DNA of 11,597 bases from UHGV virus genome UHGV-0331195. One strand, written 5' to 3'. This DNA is from a virus. Position 1 is the stretch's first letter; each line of letters starts with the position of its first letter. Both the position numbers and the translations under genes were made by a program. Below are positions 63 to 7,228 of this stretch, piece after piece. The notes beneath the pieces are model-generated. The model was not told where the DNA came from and ran no database searches. It saw nothing but the letters and a program-made list of their open reading frames with translations.

Positions 63-139
63 CGGCACGTAGCGCAGCCTGGTAGCGCACCGTCATGGGG
101 TGTCGGGGGTCGGAGGTTCAAATCCTCTCGTGCCGACCA
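63..139 (+). tRNA. proL: tRNA-Pro, anticodon GGG
   Basis: 77-nt cloverleaf: acceptor stem CGGCACG/CGTGCCG, D-arm GCGC-AGCCTGGTA-GCGC, anticodon loop ATGGGGT (GGG), T-arm GGAGG-TTCAAAT-CCTCT, 3' CCA encoded. Matches my recollection of enterobacterial proL. Confidence 0.9.
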
Positions 140-2292: not shown

Positions 2293-2318
2293 CGGGTATC
2301 ACAGATATGACAAACACG

Positions 2319-2352
2319 AAAAAAGCGGCCCCGATATGGAGCCGCCTTTCTG
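2319..2352. terminator. Bidirectional hairpin GCGGC-ccccgatatgga-GCCGC; terminator for the minus-strand RHH transcript (T-run on minus strand)
   Basis: On the minus strand the hairpin is followed by TTTTTT; on the plus strand it follows alpA with only a weak T-tract. Confidence 0.5.
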
Positions 2353-2440
2353 AACAATTAACCCGCTGCGCCTTATGTGTATGTGATCCCAAACATAAGC
2401 ACGGGGATGATAGCCGCTATCAGGCTGGTGGGCAATGCAA

Positions 2441-2629
2441 TCAGTCTGGTTCAGTTCGTTGCCATACCTGCAATGAGCGCTTTTCCCTGTACTCTTTAAG
2501 GAATTGCTCAAGGGCAAAAGCACATGGTGCGAATCTTTCTGATTCATGCTCTATCTTTCTGCGCCGTCTTTTCCGTGCCGGTGATAATGTTTTGGTCAAT
2601 TCTTTATCGGTCATTGTGTTGTCCTGCAT
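2441..2629 (-). CDS. Small basic hypothetical protein, second gene of the RHH transcript
   Basis: 62-aa ORF (or 57 aa from ATG 2614) between the RHH gene and the minus-strand terminator; contains RKRRRRK. No clear RBS. Confidence 0.3.
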   Translation of the reverse strand: MQDNTMTDKELTKTLSPARKRRRRKIEHESERFAPCAFALEQFLKEYREKRSLQVWQRTEPD

Positions 2630-2671
2630 AGCAATGCGCCGTAATACCTCACACCACGGCGCTGATAGTGA

Positions 2672-2851
2672 TTATTCTGATTCTTTGGCCTTGCGGCGCT
2701 GGCGGCGTTTGATCTCGCCTTCAAGTGCCGAAACGATAAATTGCCCTGTACTTTCGCCATCTTCCTTTAAATTTTCTACAGCATCAGCTATTGCGTGTGG
2801 TACTCGAGCCTCAAGCTTTTTGGATTTTGCATTAACTGCTTTTGTTGCCAT
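2672..2851 (-). CDS. Ribbon-helix-helix (Arc/CopG/MetJ-type) DNA-binding protein, candidate island repressor
   Basis: 59 aa from ATG 2851 with RBS GAGGAAA 7 nt upstream on the minus strand. MATKAVNAKSKKLEARVPHAIADAVENLKEDGESTGQFIVSALEGEI matches the RHH beta-strand plus two-helix pattern. Divergent from the replication operon, with operator repeats between. Confidence 0.65.
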   Translation of the reverse strand: MATKAVNAKSKKLEARVPHAIADAVENLKEDGESTGQFIVSALEGEIKRRQRRKAKESE

Positions 2852-2872
2852 ATCTGATTTCCTCGTTATTAG

Positions 2873-2952
2873 GTGGCTGACAGTATACACACAAGAAAAC
2901 GGAAAAACACTATTGACGTGGCTGACACCCGTTACTAATATAGTGGCTGACA
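2873..2952. promoter_or_regulatory. Divergent promoter/operator: three direct GTGGCTGACA repeats (2873-2882, 2918-2927, 2943-2952) over a rightward promoter TTGACG (2913-2918), 17 nt, TAATAT (2936-2941)
   Basis: Three exact 10-mers within 80 bp; the middle copy lies in the spacer of a near-consensus sigma70 promoter facing the Icd-like/primase operon. A possible leftward promoter (TTGTGT...TAATAA on the minus strand) overlaps the first repeat. Confidence 0.55.
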
Positions 2953-3045
2953 CCTTTATTAAGGTAATCGATGAAAAGACAAAGCCCCGCAAGTGTCGTT
3001 ACCACTCGCAGGGCTTCTAACCAACAACGTAAACTAGGAGCCGTT

Positions 3046-3603
3046 ATGGTTGCTGTAAATCATATACCACACCTTGTACACACACAAACGGCCTTTGTGT
3101 GGCGTTTTCTGGCCCTGAATATCGGAGAAAAAAACCGCTTGATCGCCACCAGCAAAAATGGCTATGATTCCCGCGCACCTCATAAAACGGGTGTCGGGAT
3201 TAGCCTCCTGAAAACAACTGAAGCGCACAGCACGCGCCCCGCGTGTTTTTTTGTGCCGCATAGTCACACCTTATCAATGGTGGGCTGTACGGGGGCGGAG
3301 CAATCCGCGCCGGTTTCTTCAGTGTCCGGTAAGGCTAACCCTGTACAGTCCGCCACCAGCGAAATTAGCCTTTTGCGTGGCGGTTATCTTAACCACACTG
3401 AGGAGGCTGCCAACATGGCTACTATCCCTACCCTTGTACATTCTCAAACCGCATTTATCTGGCGCTTTATCATCTTTGGCGCGTCAGAATCTCAAATCAT
3501 CCACGTAACCGCCTGGACGGAACGCGAAGCGCGTAGCCGTTGCCCGTCCGGTTGTATTGCGGTATTCGCCGCCCGTATTCGTCAGGGGGTGTGCCATGCC
3601 TGA
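3046..3603 (+). CDS. Icd-like (host cell-division inhibitor family) ORF with in-frame tandem duplication; start uncertain (2971, 3046 or 3415)
   Basis: Single frame 2971-3603 with no stop. AGGAG RBS before ATG 3046. N-terminal motif LVHTQTAFVWRF recurs as LVHSQTAFIWRF at the second copy; degenerate TEAHSTRPAC versus TEREARSRCP. Confidence 0.4.
   Translation: MVAVNHIPHLVHTQTAFVWRFLALNIGEKNRLIATSKNGYDSRAPHKTGVGISLLKTTEAHSTRPACFFVPHSHTLSMVGCTGAEQSAPVSSVSGKANPVQSATSEISLLRGGYLNHTEEAANMATIPTLVHSQTAFIWRFIIFGASESQIIHVTAWTEREARSRCPSGCIAVFAARIRQGVCHA
3415..3603 (+). CDS. Icd-like protein, second and better conserved copy, 62 aa
   Basis: Strong SD GAGGAGG (3400-3406) before ATG 3415. MATIPTLVHSQTAFIWRFIIFGAS...TEREARSRCP...FAARIRQGVCHA fits my recollection of Icd-like small proteins in P4-like/PICI elements. 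Confidence 0.5.
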   Translation: MATIPTLVHSQTAFIWRFIIFGASESQIIHVTAWTEREARSRCPSGCIAVFAARIRQGVCHA

Positions 3604-3916
3604 TATGTCAAATTACCAGTACCTGATTAATCCGCATTTTAACTGTGAGCATGATATTGCTAAAAAAGTTTATTCCGCTGCGGATGGGGCTACTGACAAT
3701 ATATCAATGGGTGTTGCGTCAATTGGTAGCCTGATGTGGCATGCGTCAGAAAATAAGGAATATGACGAAAATACCATGCGCATTGATATGGGTAATATCG
3801 GTTTGTTACTGGCAATGCTTGGACATTTTGATATTTCGTTACGGTGCACCATTGAAAATGCCACAGATGCATTAAATGCTATAAAGAAAGCGAATACTGA
3901 TTCAAATCGGGGATAA
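3596..3916 (+). CDS. Hypothetical protein, 106 aa
   Basis: ATG 3596 overlaps the preceding stop (ATGCCTGA), RBS AGGGGG 6 nt upstream. No family recognised. Confidence 0.5.
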   Translation: MPDMSNYQYLINPHFNCEHDIAKKVYSAADGATDNISMGVASIGSLMWHASENKEYDENTMRIDMGNIGLLLAMLGHFDISLRCTIENATDALNAIKKANTDSNRG

Positions 3917-3922
3917 ATAATC

Positions 3923-4222
3923 ATGAGAACGTATTTATCTGGCTTTACTGCCAGCGGCCCCGCTCGGCCTGAAATCCGCCCCGGAGATATTTTCAGAGAT
4001 AACTACGGTGGCGTTGTTGAGATTAAAGGCGTGGCAGAACGGCGCATTACCTACCGCCGTGAAGGCTACGAATATGATTGCGTGATGCCTGTTTATCAGT
4101 TCCGGCGTGATTTTTCTCTGGTACAGGCAGCGCCCCGCAGTAAACCAACCAGCAGGGAGAAAGCACGCGCCAATATTCAGGAAATAAGAAAGATGTTGAA
4201 TGTATTCAGGGGTAAAAAATGA
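3923..4222 (+). CDS. Small protein, possible DUF4222 family
   Basis: 99 aa; PGDIFRDNYGGVVEIKGVAERRITYRREGYEYDC resembles the DUF4222 pattern I recall from P4-like prophages. Stop overlaps the primase start (ATGA). Confidence 0.45.
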   Translation: MRTYLSGFTASGPARPEIRPGDIFRDNYGGVVEIKGVAERRITYRREGYEYDCVMPVYQFRRDFSLVQAAPRSKPTSREKARANIQEIRKMLNVFRGKK

Positions 4223-5967
4223 AACTGGCACCGAACGTAAAAAAACAGCCACGCGGAATAAAACACAAAGACACAGAGGTAATTATCTTTGCGGGTAGTG
4301 ATGCCTGGTCACACGCGGAACAATGGCAGGAGCAGGATGGCCCCGCATCCGGCGATAATGTGCCGCCTGTGTGGCTTGGGCCAAATCAGCTTGCCGAACT
4401 TGATGCACTGAAAATTGTTCCGGATGGAAAAAAACGCGTAAGGCTGTACCAGGCCGGAGAACTGGATTTGGTGGAGACCAAAAAGATTGGTCAGAAGCTG
4501 GCGGCGGCAGATATTCAGGACGCAAATTTTTACCCCGAAGGAATGCACGTCCAGAAGTGTGAAAACTGGCGGCGCTATCTGAATGCTGAGCGTGAAAATA
4601 TTGCCGCAGGGCTTACCATGCCGGAGCAGAAAAATACGCAACTGGCACAAATGGCAGACAGTGAGCGCGCGCAGCTGCTTGCCGAGCGCTTTGATGGCGT
4701 TTGTGTACATCCGGAAAGTGAAATCGTTCACGTATGGCGCGGCGGGGTATGGTGTCCGATCAGCACAATGGAGCTGAGCCGCGAAATGGTGGCGATCTAT
4801 TCAGAGCACAGGGCCACTTTCAGCAAACGCGTGATCAATAACGCCGTTGAAGCGTTAAAAGTTATTGCCGAACCAATGGGGGAGCCGTCCGGCGATTTGC
4901 TGCCGTTCGCCAATGGTGCGCTTGACCTGAAAACGGGGGAATTTTCCCCGCACACGCCGGAGAACTGGATCACCACGCACAACGGCATTGAGTACACGCC
5001 ACCAGCACCTGGGGAGAACATCCGCGATAACGCGCCAAACTTTCATAAATGGCTTGATCACGCAGCCGGAAAAGACCAGCGCAAGATGATGCGTATATGT
5101 GCCGCGCTGTACATGATTATGGCGAACCGGTACGACTGGCAGATGTTTATTGAGGCCACCGGAGACGGCGGGAGCGGTAAAAGTACATTCACACACATCG
5201 CCAGCCTTCTGGCAGGGAAACAGAACACGGTAAGCGCTGAAATGACATCGCTTGATGATGCTGGTGGACGTGCGCAGGTTGTCGGGAGTCGTCTTATCGT
5301 CCTGGCTGACCAGACGAAATATACAGGCGAAGGAACGGGCATCAAGAAAATCACGGGCGGCGACCCCGTGGAAATTAACCCGAAATACGAAAAGCGTTTC
5401 ACGGCTGTAATCAGGGCGGTGGTGCTGGCGACCAACAATAACCCGATGATATTCACCGAACGGGCCGGAGGTGTGGCACGTCGTCGCGTGATTTTCCGCT
5501 TCGACAATATCGTCAGTGAGGCCGAAAAAGACAGGGAGCTACCGGAAAAGATTGCGGCTGAAATCCCTGTCATTATCCGCCGATTGCTGGCGAACTTTAC
5601 CGACCCTGAGAAGGCACGGGCTTTACTACTGGAACAGCGTGACGGTGATGAAGCACTGGCAATAAAGCAACAGACGGATCCGGTTATTGAGTTTTGCCAG
5701 TTCCTGAATTTTCTGGAGGAAGCGCGCGGCCTGATGATGGGTGGCGGTGGCGATTCAGTGAAGTACACGACCAGAAACAGCCTTTACCGCGTCTATCTGG
5801 CGTTTATGGCATACGCAGGCAGGAGCAAACCGCTAAACGTAAATGACTTTGGCAAGGCTATGAAGCCAGCCGCGAAAGTTTACGGACATGAATATATTAC
5901 GCGGAAAGTTAAGGGAGTAACGCAGACTAACGCAATAACAACAGACGATTGCGACGCGTTTTTATAA
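4219..5967 (+). CDS. Replication protein: P4-alpha-like primase / SF3 helicase
   Basis: 582 aa; Walker A GDGGSGKST (aa 315-323, nt 5161-5187) and Walker B-like RLIVLAD, consistent with the phage/plasmid primase P4-family C-terminal domain. Followed by an iteron origin. Confidence 0.75.
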   Translation: MKLAPNVKKQPRGIKHKDTEVIIFAGSDAWSHAEQWQEQDGPASGDNVPPVWLGPNQLAELDALKIVPDGKKRVRLYQAGELDLVETKKIGQKLAAADIQDANFYPEGMHVQKCENWRRYLNAERENIAAGLTMPEQKNTQLAQMADSERAQLLAERFDGVCVHPESEIVHVWRGGVWCPISTMELSREMVAIYSEHRATFSKRVINNAVEALKVIAEPMGEPSGDLLPFANGALDLKTGEFSPHTPENWITTHNGIEYTPPAPGENIRDNAPNFHKWLDHAAGKDQRKMMRICAALYMIMANRYDWQMFIEATGDGGSGKSTFTHIASLLAGKQNTVSAEMTSLDDAGGRAQVVGSRLIVLADQTKYTGEGTGIKKITGGDPVEINPKYEKRFTAVIRAVVLATNNNPMIFTERAGGVARRRVIFRFDNIVSEAEKDRELPEKIAAEIPVIIRRLLANFTDPEKARALLLEQRDGDEALAIKQQTDPVIEFCQFLNFLEEARGLMMGGGGDSVKYTTRNSLYRVYLAFMAYAGRSKPLNVNDFGKAMKPAAKVYGHEYITRKVKGVTQTNAITTDDCDAFL

Positions 5968-5982
5968 TTTTTTGCAATGGCT

Positions 5983-6207
5983 GTCTACCCTGTCTACCTG
6001 AGTAAAGAAAAATACATTTAATTCAGTATATTAACTTAGGTAGACAGCCTTTTTTCACTGTCTACCTACTATCTACCCTCTCTACCTGATTTTACCTGAA
6101 TCAGACAGGGAGGTAGATACGGGGTAGATAGTGGATAAAAGCACTCTACCCCGCTGAAAGCCGCGCCATTACTGGCATGAGAGCCAGTAAGGTAGATAAG
6201 GTAGACA
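5983..6207. repeat. Origin of replication: iteron cluster with at least 12 copies of (T)GTCTACC / GGTAGA(C/T)A in both orientations around an AT-rich spacer (6001-6038)
   Basis: Direct copies at 5983-5990, 5991-5998, 6059-6066, 6071-6077, 6082-6088, 6144-6150; inverted copies at 6039-6046, 6113-6120, 6123-6130, 6191-6198, 6200-6207. Resembles P4 ori/crr octamer iterons bound by alpha. Confidence 0.7.
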
Positions 6208-6255
6208 AGGGGAGGCACAACTCAAAACTTTTTAAACGAGGGGGTAAAAATAAAA

Positions 6256-6519
6256 ATGCGCACATCAGGAAAACTTAATAATCAGAAGAAGCAGCATAAC
6301 CGCGCCATTGACCTTACAGAGCACTGGCTGAGAGTGGCGATAAAAATCATCGACCGCAACACGGGGGAAGGATACGCGAAAGCACATCCCGAACTGATAA
6401 GCGCATTCATGACCACGGCGGCGGCAAACTTTGCCACGCTGACAGAACGGGAGATTGCCGAAGCGGAACAGGTAACAACCATCAACGTAAAAACCGGAGA
6501 GTCAGGCGATGATACATGA
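6256..6519 (+). CDS. Hypothetical protein, 87 aa
   Basis: ORF with GAGGGGG upstream; stop overlaps the next gene's start. Confidence 0.45.
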   Translation: MRTSGKLNNQKKQHNRAIDLTEHWLRVAIKIIDRNTGEGYAKAHPELISAFMTTAAANFATLTEREIAEAEQVTTINVKTGESGDDT

Positions 6520-6781
6520 CCGCATAGCGGAGGAACTCGAGGCGAAAGGATTTTACCGGAGGGCGGCGGCGCGATGGGGTGAAGTCATGCAGCTGGTGGA
6601 GACAGACAAGGAACGGCATCAGGTTACGATGCGACGGCTGGAATGTTCCAGGAAGGCACAGAGGCCACCGGAGCCGCCGGATAACTTCGGAGACCTGAGA
6701 AAGGCAGTCGATCGCACTTATGCTGAAATGGGTATAGATGGTGTAAGCGATGAAATATGGCGTAATTACCCAGGCAGCTAA
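6509..6781 (+). CDS. PerC-like transcriptional regulator (tentative)
   Basis: 90 aa; N-terminus IAEELEAKGFYRRAAARWGEVM resembles the PerC-family signature as I recall it. Translationally coupled to the upstream ORF. Confidence 0.45.
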   Translation: MIHDRIAEELEAKGFYRRAAARWGEVMQLVETDKERHQVTMRRLECSRKAQRPPEPPDNFGDLRKAVDRTYAEMGIDGVSDEIWRNYPGS

Positions 6782-6787
6782 TCAACA

Positions 6788-6809
6788 GCCGGAGTAATCC
6801 GGCTTTTTT
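6788..6809 (+). terminator. Rho-independent terminator GCCGGAGtaaTCCGGC then T6
   Basis: Hairpin plus TTTTTT. Nearly identical to the terminator at 9064-9086. Confidence 0.65.
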
Positions 6810-6821
6810 GTACCCAAAAAA

Positions 6822-6858
6822 AGCCCGATAAGTACAGGAGGCATCTTATCGGGCTTTT
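6822..6858. terminator. Second, bidirectional terminator (AGCCCGATAAG...CTTATCGGGCT flanked by A-run and T-run)
   Basis: 11-bp stem hairpin with A7 upstream and T4 downstream; insulates the early/replication region from the head operon. Confidence 0.6.
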
Positions 6859-6891
6859 GCATATGAGGTTTTTTTTGGTGCACTGACACAC

Positions 6892-6990
6892 ATGATCGGG
6901 ATCATCATTTCATAATTTGCAACACAACTCAACATCATTGCATAAAATGCAATCATGATTATAATCATAACTGGATGAACATCCAGTTAT
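6892..6990 (+). promoter_or_regulatory. Head-operon control region: consensus -10 TATAAT (6959-6964) with TTGCAT -35 candidate (6938-6943), plus four palindromes
   Basis: Palindromes ATGATC-GG-GATCAT (6892-6905), TTGCAT-AAA-ATGCAA (6938-6952), ATGATTATAATCAT (6955-6968), ATAACTGGATG-AA-CATCCAGTTAT (6967-6990); the last sits at the expected transcription start. Confidence 0.5.
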
Positions 6991-7021
6991 GATTTTTTAA
7001 GTCAAAGAGGAATTTCTTACT

Positions 7022-7228
7022 ATGGCTGAAGAGAAAAAAGGCGGTGTTTCGGTGTACATAAGCCCCGACATCGTGAAGGCGCTCAAGGAACGCCACCAGC
7101 AGAACGTAAAAGCAGGCATTGCGGCAGGACTTGATCCGCTGGCGATGGTTGAGCCGTCAACAGGCTGGCAGGTACGCGCCTATTTACGCGCGGCGCTGGG
7201 TATGAATCAGGTTCACGGGGGTGAATAA
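7022..7228 (+). CDS. Small hypothetical protein, first gene of head operon
   Basis: 68 aa, RBS AAGAGGAA, stop overlaps the capsid gene start (TAATG). No similarity to lambda gpW, which has the same length, that I can see. Confidence 0.5.
   Translation: MAEEKKGGVSVYISPDIVKALKERHQQNVKAGIAAGLDPLAMVEPSTGWQVRAYLRAALGMNQVHGGE

Follow-up and report, generated by a model that had tools for sequence, protein, structure and literature searches.

A candidate ribbon-helix-helix repressor and its three putative operators at the replication promoter of an EcCICFT073-type satellite island

The viral genome UHGV-0331195 (11,597 nt; the window, that is, the whole stretch of DNA analysed here) was 99.9% identical to a chromosomal island of Escherichia coli NCTC9112, which is inserted between yejM/tRNA-Pro and yejO. 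Its genes are ordered as integrase, an 83-aa open reading frame (ORF), an AlpA-like helix-turn-helix (HTH) protein, two small leftward genes, a rightward replication operon and then late genes. EcCICFT073, the prototype Gram-negative phage-inducible chromosomal island (PICI), has the same gene order and homologous late genes, and on this basis the window was assigned to the EcCICFT073-type PICIs. Here we describe its control region, in which a 59-aa candidate ribbon-helix-helix (RHH) repressor is encoded divergently from the replication operon, and three copies of one short site lie between the two. On the plus strand, a long ORF crosses the repressor gene and these sites, and an RNA immunity cassette of the P4 type follows further downstream. 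The coordinates of all features are shown in Table 1.

Table 1. Features of the control region and neighbouring parts of the window
Feature	Coordinates	Strand	Basis or remark
tRNA-Pro	63-136		RNA gene scan
alpA-like HTH gene, 68 aa	2086-2292	+	weak Pfam Phage_AlpA/HTH_17 matches
Long ORF, 237 aa	2307-3020	+	begins 14 nt past the alpA stop
Intrinsic terminator of the leftward RHH unit, hairpin and T6	2319-2351	-	terminator scan; RNA fold z = -3.3
62-aa ORF	2441-2629	-	downstream of the RHH gene; no family match
Candidate RHH repressor gene, 59 aa and stop, YlcI/YnfO family	2672-2851	-	NCBIfam and predicted fold
Shine-Dalgarno GAGGAA of the RHH gene	2859-2864	-	7 nt ahead of the ATG; comparable GGAG/GAGGA in relatives
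Operator O1, GTGGCTGACAG	2873-2883		lies over the start site of the RHH gene and the downstream end of its putative -10
Putative RHH-gene -10, TATACT on the minus strand	2882-2887	-	conservation alone
Replication-operon promoter, TTGACG (2913-2918)-17-TAATAT (2936-2941)	2913-2941	+	promoter scan
Operator O2, GTGGCTGACAC	2918-2928		first base is the last base of the -35; occupies the spacer
Operator O3, GTGGCTGACAC	2943-2953		begins 2 nt past the -10; spans the expected start of transcription
Conserved leader hairpin GCCCCGCAAGTG...CACTCGCAGGGC, then invariant TCTAACC	2984-3021	+	compensatory changes
185-aa ORF, open across both RNA genes	3046-3603	+	icd-like N-terminal remnant 3046-3130, 'Ash' region, icd-like C-terminus
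Internal promoter-like site TTGATC-18-TATGAT	3139-3168	+	ends 7 nt ahead of the isrK-like RNA
isrK / P4 seqA-like RNA	3175-3251	+	Rfam RF01394, 61.8 bits vs gathering score 50
C4 / P4 CI-like antisense RNA	3273-3360	+	Rfam RF01695, 75.4 bits vs gathering score 45; model positions 1-87 of 87
C4 loop target CACACUGAGGAGGCUGC	3394-3410	+	covers the GAGGAGG Shine-Dalgarno of icd (ATG 3415)
icd-like gene, 62 aa, first gene of the replication operon proper	3415-3603	+	NCBIfam NF033153, E = 6e-16
Rest of the replication operon	3596-5967	+	106-aa ORF 3596-3916; DUF4222 3923-4222; D5_N/DUF5906/Pox_D5 primase-helicase 4219-5967
Iterons of the probable replication origin, (C/T)TGTCTACC, both orientations	5976-6210		dense array directly 3' of the primase stop

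The 10-mer GTGGCTGACA was found without mismatches in exactly three copies in the window (2873-2882, 2918-2927 and 2943-2952). It was the sole 10-mer of the window with three copies inside 100 bp, and such a triple never arose in 400 first-order Markov simulations of the window. Copies 2 and 3 are each part of a longer, 21-nt repeat, ACTA-N5-GTGGCTGACACC. A first-pass annotation of this DNA had already pointed out the three repeats, the position of the middle one in the spacer of TTGACG-17-TAATAT and an RHH gene that is read the opposite way from an ATG 22 nt from the first repeat, and all these positions could be confirmed. On the other hand, its suggestion that direct repeats reflect RHH proteins bound as tandem dimers did not hold, as the sites are 11-bp pseudo-palindromes of the form GTG-N5-CAC spaced 22-45 bp apart, and many relatives have O3 in the opposite orientation; one RHH dimer per site would be the simplest reading. 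We also considered that O3 had been inverted in some classes to spare the long ORF a stop codon, and rejected this since flipping would introduce a stop at only 4 of the 25 inverted sites. Because O1 overlaps the end of the putative -10 and the start site of the RHH gene, it is a candidate site of autoregulation.

The 59-aa protein matched the NCBIfam model NF041551 (YlcI/YnfO) over residues 9-50 with 60.6 bits, above the curated cut-off of 30 (E = 1.1e-16). We collected 88 close homologues, all of which, where an organism was named, came from Enterobacterales, and an exhaustive profile search of 1.84 billion representatives returned 98 relatives. An AlphaFold model based on 32 homologues (predicted local distance difference test score 89) had an extended N-terminus followed by helices at residues 19-28 and 35-58, with a beta-strand predicted at about residues 10-17. 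This predicted N-terminal strand with two helices, superposable on solved RHH domains, is the arrangement that defines the RHH superfamily. In the homologue alignment, residues 13, 15 and 17 were hydrophobic and N7, K9, S10 and R16 invariant, whereas residues 12 and 14 were hypervariable. Such alternation of variable and hydrophobic columns is to be expected of an RHH strand with every other residue turned toward the DNA. A fold of the Arc/MetJ/CopG type is supported for the 59-aa protein by its predicted model and not by matches to sequence models.

YlcI and YnfO, after which the NCBIfam model is named, are encoded by the E. coli K-12 prophages DLP12 and Qin and are only distantly related to the protein of the window. 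A tblastn search with the latter against 50,697 phage records gave no match, and its relation to the lambdoid proteins is therefore remote. The genes of YlcI and YnfO are presumably located near terminase genes in their prophages. No function was found for YlcI, YnfO or DUF3950 in the literature, in a search that did not extend to subscription-only papers. EcCICFT073 itself carries the RHH module, although its 59-aa gene is present only in a newer re-annotation.

We then examined the control region in five E. coli relatives and in 80 loci from contigs of one genome per species; 82 loci were usable, and promoter elements and spacing were compared over 68 unique regions. These loci span E. coli, Salmonella relatives, Pectobacterium, Xenorhabdus, Yersinia, Serratia, Klebsiella and others. 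One 11-mer was present in three copies at 71 of the 82 loci, at offsets of ~24, ~69 and 91-104 nt from the RHH start codon, with O1 at 24 in most of ~70 loci. O2 followed directly after TTGAnn at a fixed offset throughout the 68 unique regions (TTGACG in 32), a TAnnnT hexamer lay 17-18 bp past TTGAnn in 67 of them, and O3 came after this hexamer. The distance between O1 and O2 was 45 bp in 51 unique regions, and that between O2 and O3 was either 22-26 bp or 34-35 bp. It is this conservation, not the match to the consensus, that supports the promoter. Directly 3' of O1, GTATAC was found in ~45 of the 68 regions; it reads TATACT on the strand of the RHH gene and is likely, from its recurrence at this position, to be the -10 of that gene. 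The repeats are thus not confined to the window: the three-site layout, on whose presence in related islands the first-pass annotation had made its proposal depend, was kept in ~70 of them.

Although the general form GTG-N5-CAC was common to the sites, their sequence was not, and all three copies shifted jointly between islands to give more than 15 classes, with constant flanking promoter elements. Each class was associated with a particular strand of the RHH protein. The residues 11-17 KKLEARV, found in the window, go with GTGGCTGACAC; QT(V/L/I)AARV with GTGTTCAACAC; QALKARV or QSLKSRV with GTGG(G/A)CCACAC; QMTTVRI with GTGTAT(G/T)TCAC; KRFDVRV with GTGTCCGACAC; and QS(I/V)T.R. with GTGTAAGACAC. 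More than 10 further operator classes exist beyond these six. The class of EcCICFT073 is GTGGGCCACAC, heterologous to that of the window. An operator was shared (at most one mismatch) by 93% of the locus pairs that were identical at residues 11-14, but by only 1.2% of the pairs that differed there. The alignment columns tightest to operator identity were residues 12 and 14, which on the strength of this co-variation are candidate specificity determinants.

Two further observations extended this relationship. First, one locus (L088) is a natural recombinant, in which residues 1-32 of the RHH protein are window-like and residues 33-59 CFT073-like; its operators are of the window class, and its leader and icd are of the CFT073 type. 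Second, a scan of 2.9 million viral contigs (IMG/VR) for the operator pair returned 20 contigs, all of 8-27 kb, 19 of which carried an RHH gene of the KKLEARV class at the same distance of 66 nt. One locus (L005) appeared to be a counter-example, having residues 11-17 as in a QQLNARF class together with GTGAATACCAC sites; this was resolved by reading the site on the other strand as GTGGTATTCAC, which is 1-2 nt from the other Q12/N14 classes. It should be noted that five loci (L010, L013, L020, L037 and L040) kept the RHH gene and had lost O3 or the entire promoter/operator block, with O2 fused in L010 to sequence normally found 3' of O3. They are probably decayed or rearranged islands.

Downstream of O3, the leader hairpin was also conserved, with compensatory changes in 9 of its 10 predicted pairs among 26 loci. 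On the minus strand, the terminator scan reported it as a terminator-like site. It is followed by an invariant motif, TCT.ACC(A/C)..AAC, which we take to be loosely boxA-like, and the hairpin (2984-3021) had no match in Rfam.

On the basis of these results, the 59-aa RHH protein is probably the island's own repressor of the replication operon, autoregulated and acting inside additional layers of RNA and translation control; judged from sequence comparison, we would give this reading a probability of roughly 0.7. The autoregulated repressor proposed by the first-pass annotation is in its core strongly supported by the predicted fold, the layout of ~70 islands, the co-variation, the chimeric locus and the operator search, which together suggest binding and repression. 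An RHH dimer would recognize the 11-bp pseudo-palindrome GTG-N5-CAC, the outer triplets probably being read by the invariant N7, K9, S10 and R16 and the variable centre by strand residues 12 and 14. In the quiet state, RHH protein on O2 in the spacer and on O3 at the start site would block RNA polymerase at the promoter of the icd-primase operon, and occupation of O1 at the start site of the gene's own leftward promoter would result in negative autoregulation.

Several points weigh against this reading. All functional statements are derived from position and co-variation. The RHH N-terminus adjoins the operators, and linkage alone would give co-inheritance of the two; the only argument beyond linkage is that three separated sites change in concert within conserved promoter elements, which suggests a shared locus-specific binding factor. 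TTGACG-17-TAATAT matches the consensus at 9 of 12 positions, and equal matches numbered 5 in the window against 2.9 expected from shuffles, so 'near-consensus', as the promoter had been called, was generous; for the RHH gene's own promoter, no convincing -35 could be found. With regard to the protein, a Pfam scan gave no family at E <= 0.1 and no RHH model, a profile search of PDB sequences gave no match at E <= 10, and Foldseek with the predicted model gave nothing below E = 4.8. As for the outer control layers, the long ORF is interrupted at 3020 in the window, and the RNA cassette is missing from nearly all related loci scanned and so lies outside the general module. Finally, overexpression of AlpA alone leads to replication of EcCICFT073 (PMC6092414), and therefore the RHH protein would not be an absolute block. 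Since the published route of induction is through AlpA (PMC6092414), the idea that the operon is held off until helper induction could not be assigned to the RHH protein alone.

In the best placed of the alternatives, the RHH protein is a fine-tuning or copy-number regulator, like CopG of the pMV158-type plasmids, instead of a master switch for silence, and silence and induction operate through AlpA and, in the window island, the C4/isrK RNA immunity. We regard this as rather unlikely, because two operators lie on core elements of the promoter and are kept in ~70 islands, most of which are without the RNA cassette. Moreover, no other repressor candidate is encoded, and more than 15 specificity classes resemble immunity groups more than copy control.

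It is also conceivable that something other than the RHH protein binds the repeats (AlpA, the Icd-like protein, the replicase or a host protein, for example), with the RHH gene a mere passenger whose N-terminus is inherited together with the repeats through adjacency. However, an identical AlpA (WP_000953271) occurs with two operator classes and an identical icd 5' end with three, and at least four replicase architectures are found behind the same three-site layout, with the KKLE class occurring alongside two of them. A role of the repeats as replicase iterons was rejected, considering that the origin iterons at 5976-6210 have a different sequence and that operator class does not depend on the type of replicase. 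More than 15 site variants would not be needed for a host factor, and the RHH columns that track the sites are exactly the DNA-facing strand positions 12 and 14. Thus, an alternative binder appears improbable, and the RHH protein is preferred as the factor that reads the three sites.

A still less probable explanation is that the 59-aa gene is not real and is only an antisense shadow of the long plus-strand ORF (Bro/Eta-like, 237-433 codons). The plus frame is indeed open over the entire region in most loci, and the Prokaryotic Genome Annotation Pipeline (PGAP) annotates plus-strand products there; codon periodicity cannot separate the two, since both frames share third codon positions. However, the minus-strand product yields a confident RHH model with invariant polar residues and an alternating hydrophobic strand, and its gene has a terminator of its own besides a start and a Shine-Dalgarno sequence that are conserved, whereas the plus-strand translation is Cys/Arg/Ser-rich and matches no family. 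In addition, both frames can function simultaneously. The least probable reading, an RHH antitoxin paired with the small ORF downstream and autoregulated through the repeats, was rejected, given that this ORF has no toxin-family match and no conservation outside E. coli, that no downstream partner of the RHH gene is conserved across genera and that two of the three sites lie on the opposite promoter, that of the replication operon.

The long ORF passes antisense through the 62-aa ORF and the RHH gene and continues over all three operators, both promoters and the leader hairpin, and its stop codon (3018-3020) is the TAA inside the invariant TCTAACC. Of 70 unique RHH genes, 65 were crossed by its frame without a stop, compared with a mean of 27 and a maximum of 38 when synonymous codons were resampled, and the frame was also open across the 180-nt control region in 61 of 78 unique regions, compared with 0 and 2 for the other plus frames. 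In ~52 of 77 loci, it runs in frame to the end of icd, the EcCICFT073 version comprising 433 codons. Besides its place in the window (2307-3020, plus strand), the long ORF was located at 5752-7053 of locus L087. As the product is mostly Cys/Arg/Ser-rich and matches no family, selection appears to act on the open frame rather than on a protein. By analogy with eta of P4, the long ORF is probably kept open so that transcription from the alpA promoter (P_alpA), coupled to translation, can continue.

The terminator hairpin at 2319-2351, where the leftward RHH transcription unit ends, lies between the convergent alpA and RHH units and also folds on the plus strand, just 3' of the start of the long ORF. 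Translation of this ORF would melt the hairpin, because the A-tract and the stem encode its conserved 'KTKAA' start. An eta/kil arrangement as in P4 was found in ~52 of 77 relatives and in EcCICFT073, but not in the window, whose long ORF ends at 3018-3020 and whose icd-containing ORF (2971/3046-3603) uses a different frame. Near four relatives (L026, L033, L055 and L075), the int-alpA RNA of Rfam (RF02996) could be identified; in the window, it was not detected at E <= 1. In L055, where the integrase and this RNA lie to the side of the RHH gene that faces the replication operon, the element may be tandem or rearranged.

These observations suggest how induction might proceed. A helper would turn on alpA, and the alpA transcripts would be translated through the long ORF, antisense over the repressor gene and its operators; such alpA-driven read-through could turn the repressor off and let transcription reach the replication operon. 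Because the long ORF is broken at 3020 in the window, this model needs re-initiation there at 3046, with translation then running through the isrK terminator and C4. More generally, one might speculate that EcCICFT073-type satellites across Enterobacterales share a toggle, convergent and dual-coded, made up of the RHH gene and the long ORF coupled to alpA, and that the strand/operator variants are more than 15 immunity groups. In the quiet state of such a toggle, RHH protein would shut the replication promoter and limit its own level. Upon helper infection, AlpA-driven transcription would be sustained by translation of an ORF selected only for its openness, and this translation, antisense to the repressor gene and operators, would silence the repressor and deliver the replication operon. 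The immunity groups would let several satellites share one cell without cross-repression. We consider this wider scheme tentative, with odds clearly below even.

The first-pass annotation had described the promoter as facing an icd-like/primase operon. The order of the operon could be confirmed, and the icd-like ORF at 2971-3603 proved not to be a simple gene, as it also holds an internal promoter and the isrK and C4 RNAs of a P4-type immunity cassette. The 185-aa ORF has AGGAG ahead of its ATG at 3046, and the two icd 5' ends in the window are 74% identical. A Pfam match to Phage_ASH ('Ash protein family') covers residues 40-133 of this ORF, i.e. the translated region of the isrK and C4 RNAs, and PGAP reports pieces of 3046-3600 as 'ash family' and 'Icd-like' pseudogenes. 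Thus, the Ash protein family may largely reflect conserved RNA genes. The hexamers of the internal promoter are kept in locus L002, with a different spacer, and homology to the cassettes of Stx and P1-like phages starts at ~3160.

The isrK-like RNA has a 3' intrinsic terminator at 3229-3251, consisting of a hairpin (3229-3247) and a T run. The C4 loop could form 15 contiguous pairs with 3394-3410 (-21.7 kcal/mol, an inverted repeat); the second isrK hairpin is complementary to C4 segment 3332-3341, and the pairing of the C4 a' segment with isrK 3195-3209 gave -16.6 kcal/mol. These energies are for loop segments only, and full-length duplex energies ignore intramolecular structure. It is characteristic of the C4 family that the loop is complementary to targets on both sides, with the downstream target at the icd ribosome-binding site. 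The roles of CI, seqA and seqC in P4 have been described (PMC4825925), and C4 and isrK RNAs have been reported in some Gram-negative PICIs (PMC10111431). In the window island, the cassette could provide a second, optional layer: the internal promoter would make isrK/seqA and its terminator and then C4/CI, the loop of which would pair with the icd ribosome-binding site and the seqA-like hairpin. If so, stray transcription would be terminated and icd left untranslated. Among 20 related loci scanned, only L002 carried such a cassette (2 of 21 with the window), and its membership in the general module was rejected in favour of an add-on. A 10-nt perfect complementarity between the promoter spacer at the edge of O2 (2924-2933, GACACCCGTT) and the first isrK hairpin (3186-3195) was at the level expected by chance in 1.1 kb.

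The remaining gene content agreed with a Gram-negative PICI, comprising int, alpA, a primase with a downstream iteron origin and packaging/capsid genes within ~10-12 kb at a specific attachment site. The late genes include PerC, major capsid, head decoration and small terminase (terS), and the iteron array behind the primase is the probable replication origin of the island. The alpA-like gene lies upstream of the replication operon in the same direction, and PGAP annotates it in the 99.9%-identical record as 'helix-turn-helix transcriptional regulator'. In EcCICFT073, AlpA is the helper-dependent activator, which helper phages turn on; helper-phage dependence of induction, replication and packaging has been published for EcCICFT073 only (PMC6092414). 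The 62-aa ORF downstream of the RHH gene is identical in EcCICFT073, and PGAP does not call it in the near-identical record; other E. coli islands have a 75-aa counterpart that shares the motif FALE.F with it. Near the right end of the island, ATGTTAAC occurs three times in ~100 bp (11026, 11094 and 11118); these copies may be arm sites for the integrase or mark a packaging site.

Control by a small RHH repressor whose operators overlap the promoter is classical, and the RNA cassette is likewise known already. Our literature searches on PICI and ribbon-helix-helix, on a Gram-negative PICI master repressor and on satellite AlpA antitermination, which did not cover subscription-only papers, returned no description of the RHH module. 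Within the searchable literature, four aspects appear to be new: the RHH repressor as a conserved part of EcCICFT073-type PICIs, whose repressor was explicitly called unclear; the many matched protein/operator classes with an apparent two-residue code; the embedding of the repressor gene and operators antisense in an ORF that is kept open on the other strand; and the conserved leader hairpin with the invariant TCTAACC. Parts of the control region matched ~1,700 of 5,426 complete E. coli genomes, and the module was also present in many other genera of Enterobacterales. If the RHH protein is the repressor, it would offer a direct handle on satellite silence and helper wake-up, and its operator classes would predict which satellites cross-regulate. 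A set of small repressor/operator pairs, orthogonal to one another and following a two-residue code that can be read, would also become available, and the protein would be relevant to the engineering of PICIs as vehicles for delivery. The overlap of the RHH gene and the long ORF is in itself a clean natural case of dual coding.

The closest parallels in protein architecture are Arc/Mnt of the P22 immI region, CopG of pMV158 and omega of pSM19035. They share with the candidate repressor a size of ~50-60 aa and the strand-helix-helix order, sites over the -35, -10 and +1 of the controlled promoter together with an autoregulatory site on the own promoter, and, presumably, the reading of bases by alternate residues of the N-terminal strand. 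On the other hand, they have no detectable sequence relation to the protein of the window. Arc and CopG use adjacent half-sites and omega uses tandem heptads, whereas the sites of the window are single 11-bp pseudo-palindromes 22-45 bp apart, and, unlike these proteins, the family described here is split into many matched protein/operator classes. In SaPIs, the pathogenicity islands of Staphylococcus aureus, a satellite-encoded repressor gene (Stl/Rpr) that is divergent from the excision/replication operon keeps the island quiet (PMC6092414). The likeness of these Gram-positive PICIs to the window is one of position only, namely a divergent repressor gene with sites in a shared control region; the window protein is a 59-aa RHH protein, and the published inducer route is the AlpA activator. 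Stl proteins are HTH proteins larger than 59 aa and are inactivated by binding of a helper-phage protein.

The immunity region of P4 (P_LE/P_LL, vis, eta/kil, seqA-CI-seqC) resembles the outer layers of the window. Both have C4 (CI-like) and isrK (seqA-like) RNAs upstream of replication genes, a CI-like loop complementary to upstream and downstream targets, a long ORF directly 3' of the alpA/vis homologue, and an ORF that spans the RNA genes without a stop and has a short C-terminal form resembling Icd/Kil, the 185-aa ORF corresponding to eta and its short form to kil. The constitutive immunity promoter of P4 is the analogue of the internal site at 3139-3168. In P4, termination is prevented by the translation of eta, which comes after the alpA homologue and has Kil as its short C-terminal form (PMC10111431). 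P4 differs in that eta has no protein repressor gene on its opposite strand and that a promoter with three operators is lacking, and the window island is a PICI without sid, psu and delta of P4; most RHH-module islands are without the RNA cassette. Finally, in immI of P1/P7 (c4 RNA-icd-ant), a C4-family RNA also precedes an icd-like gene with a ribosome-binding site complementary to its loop, and a P1-like phage was 71% identical to the cassette of the window. In the window, however, the downstream cargo is a replication operon instead of an antirepressor, and the upstream promoter appears to be under RHH-type control.

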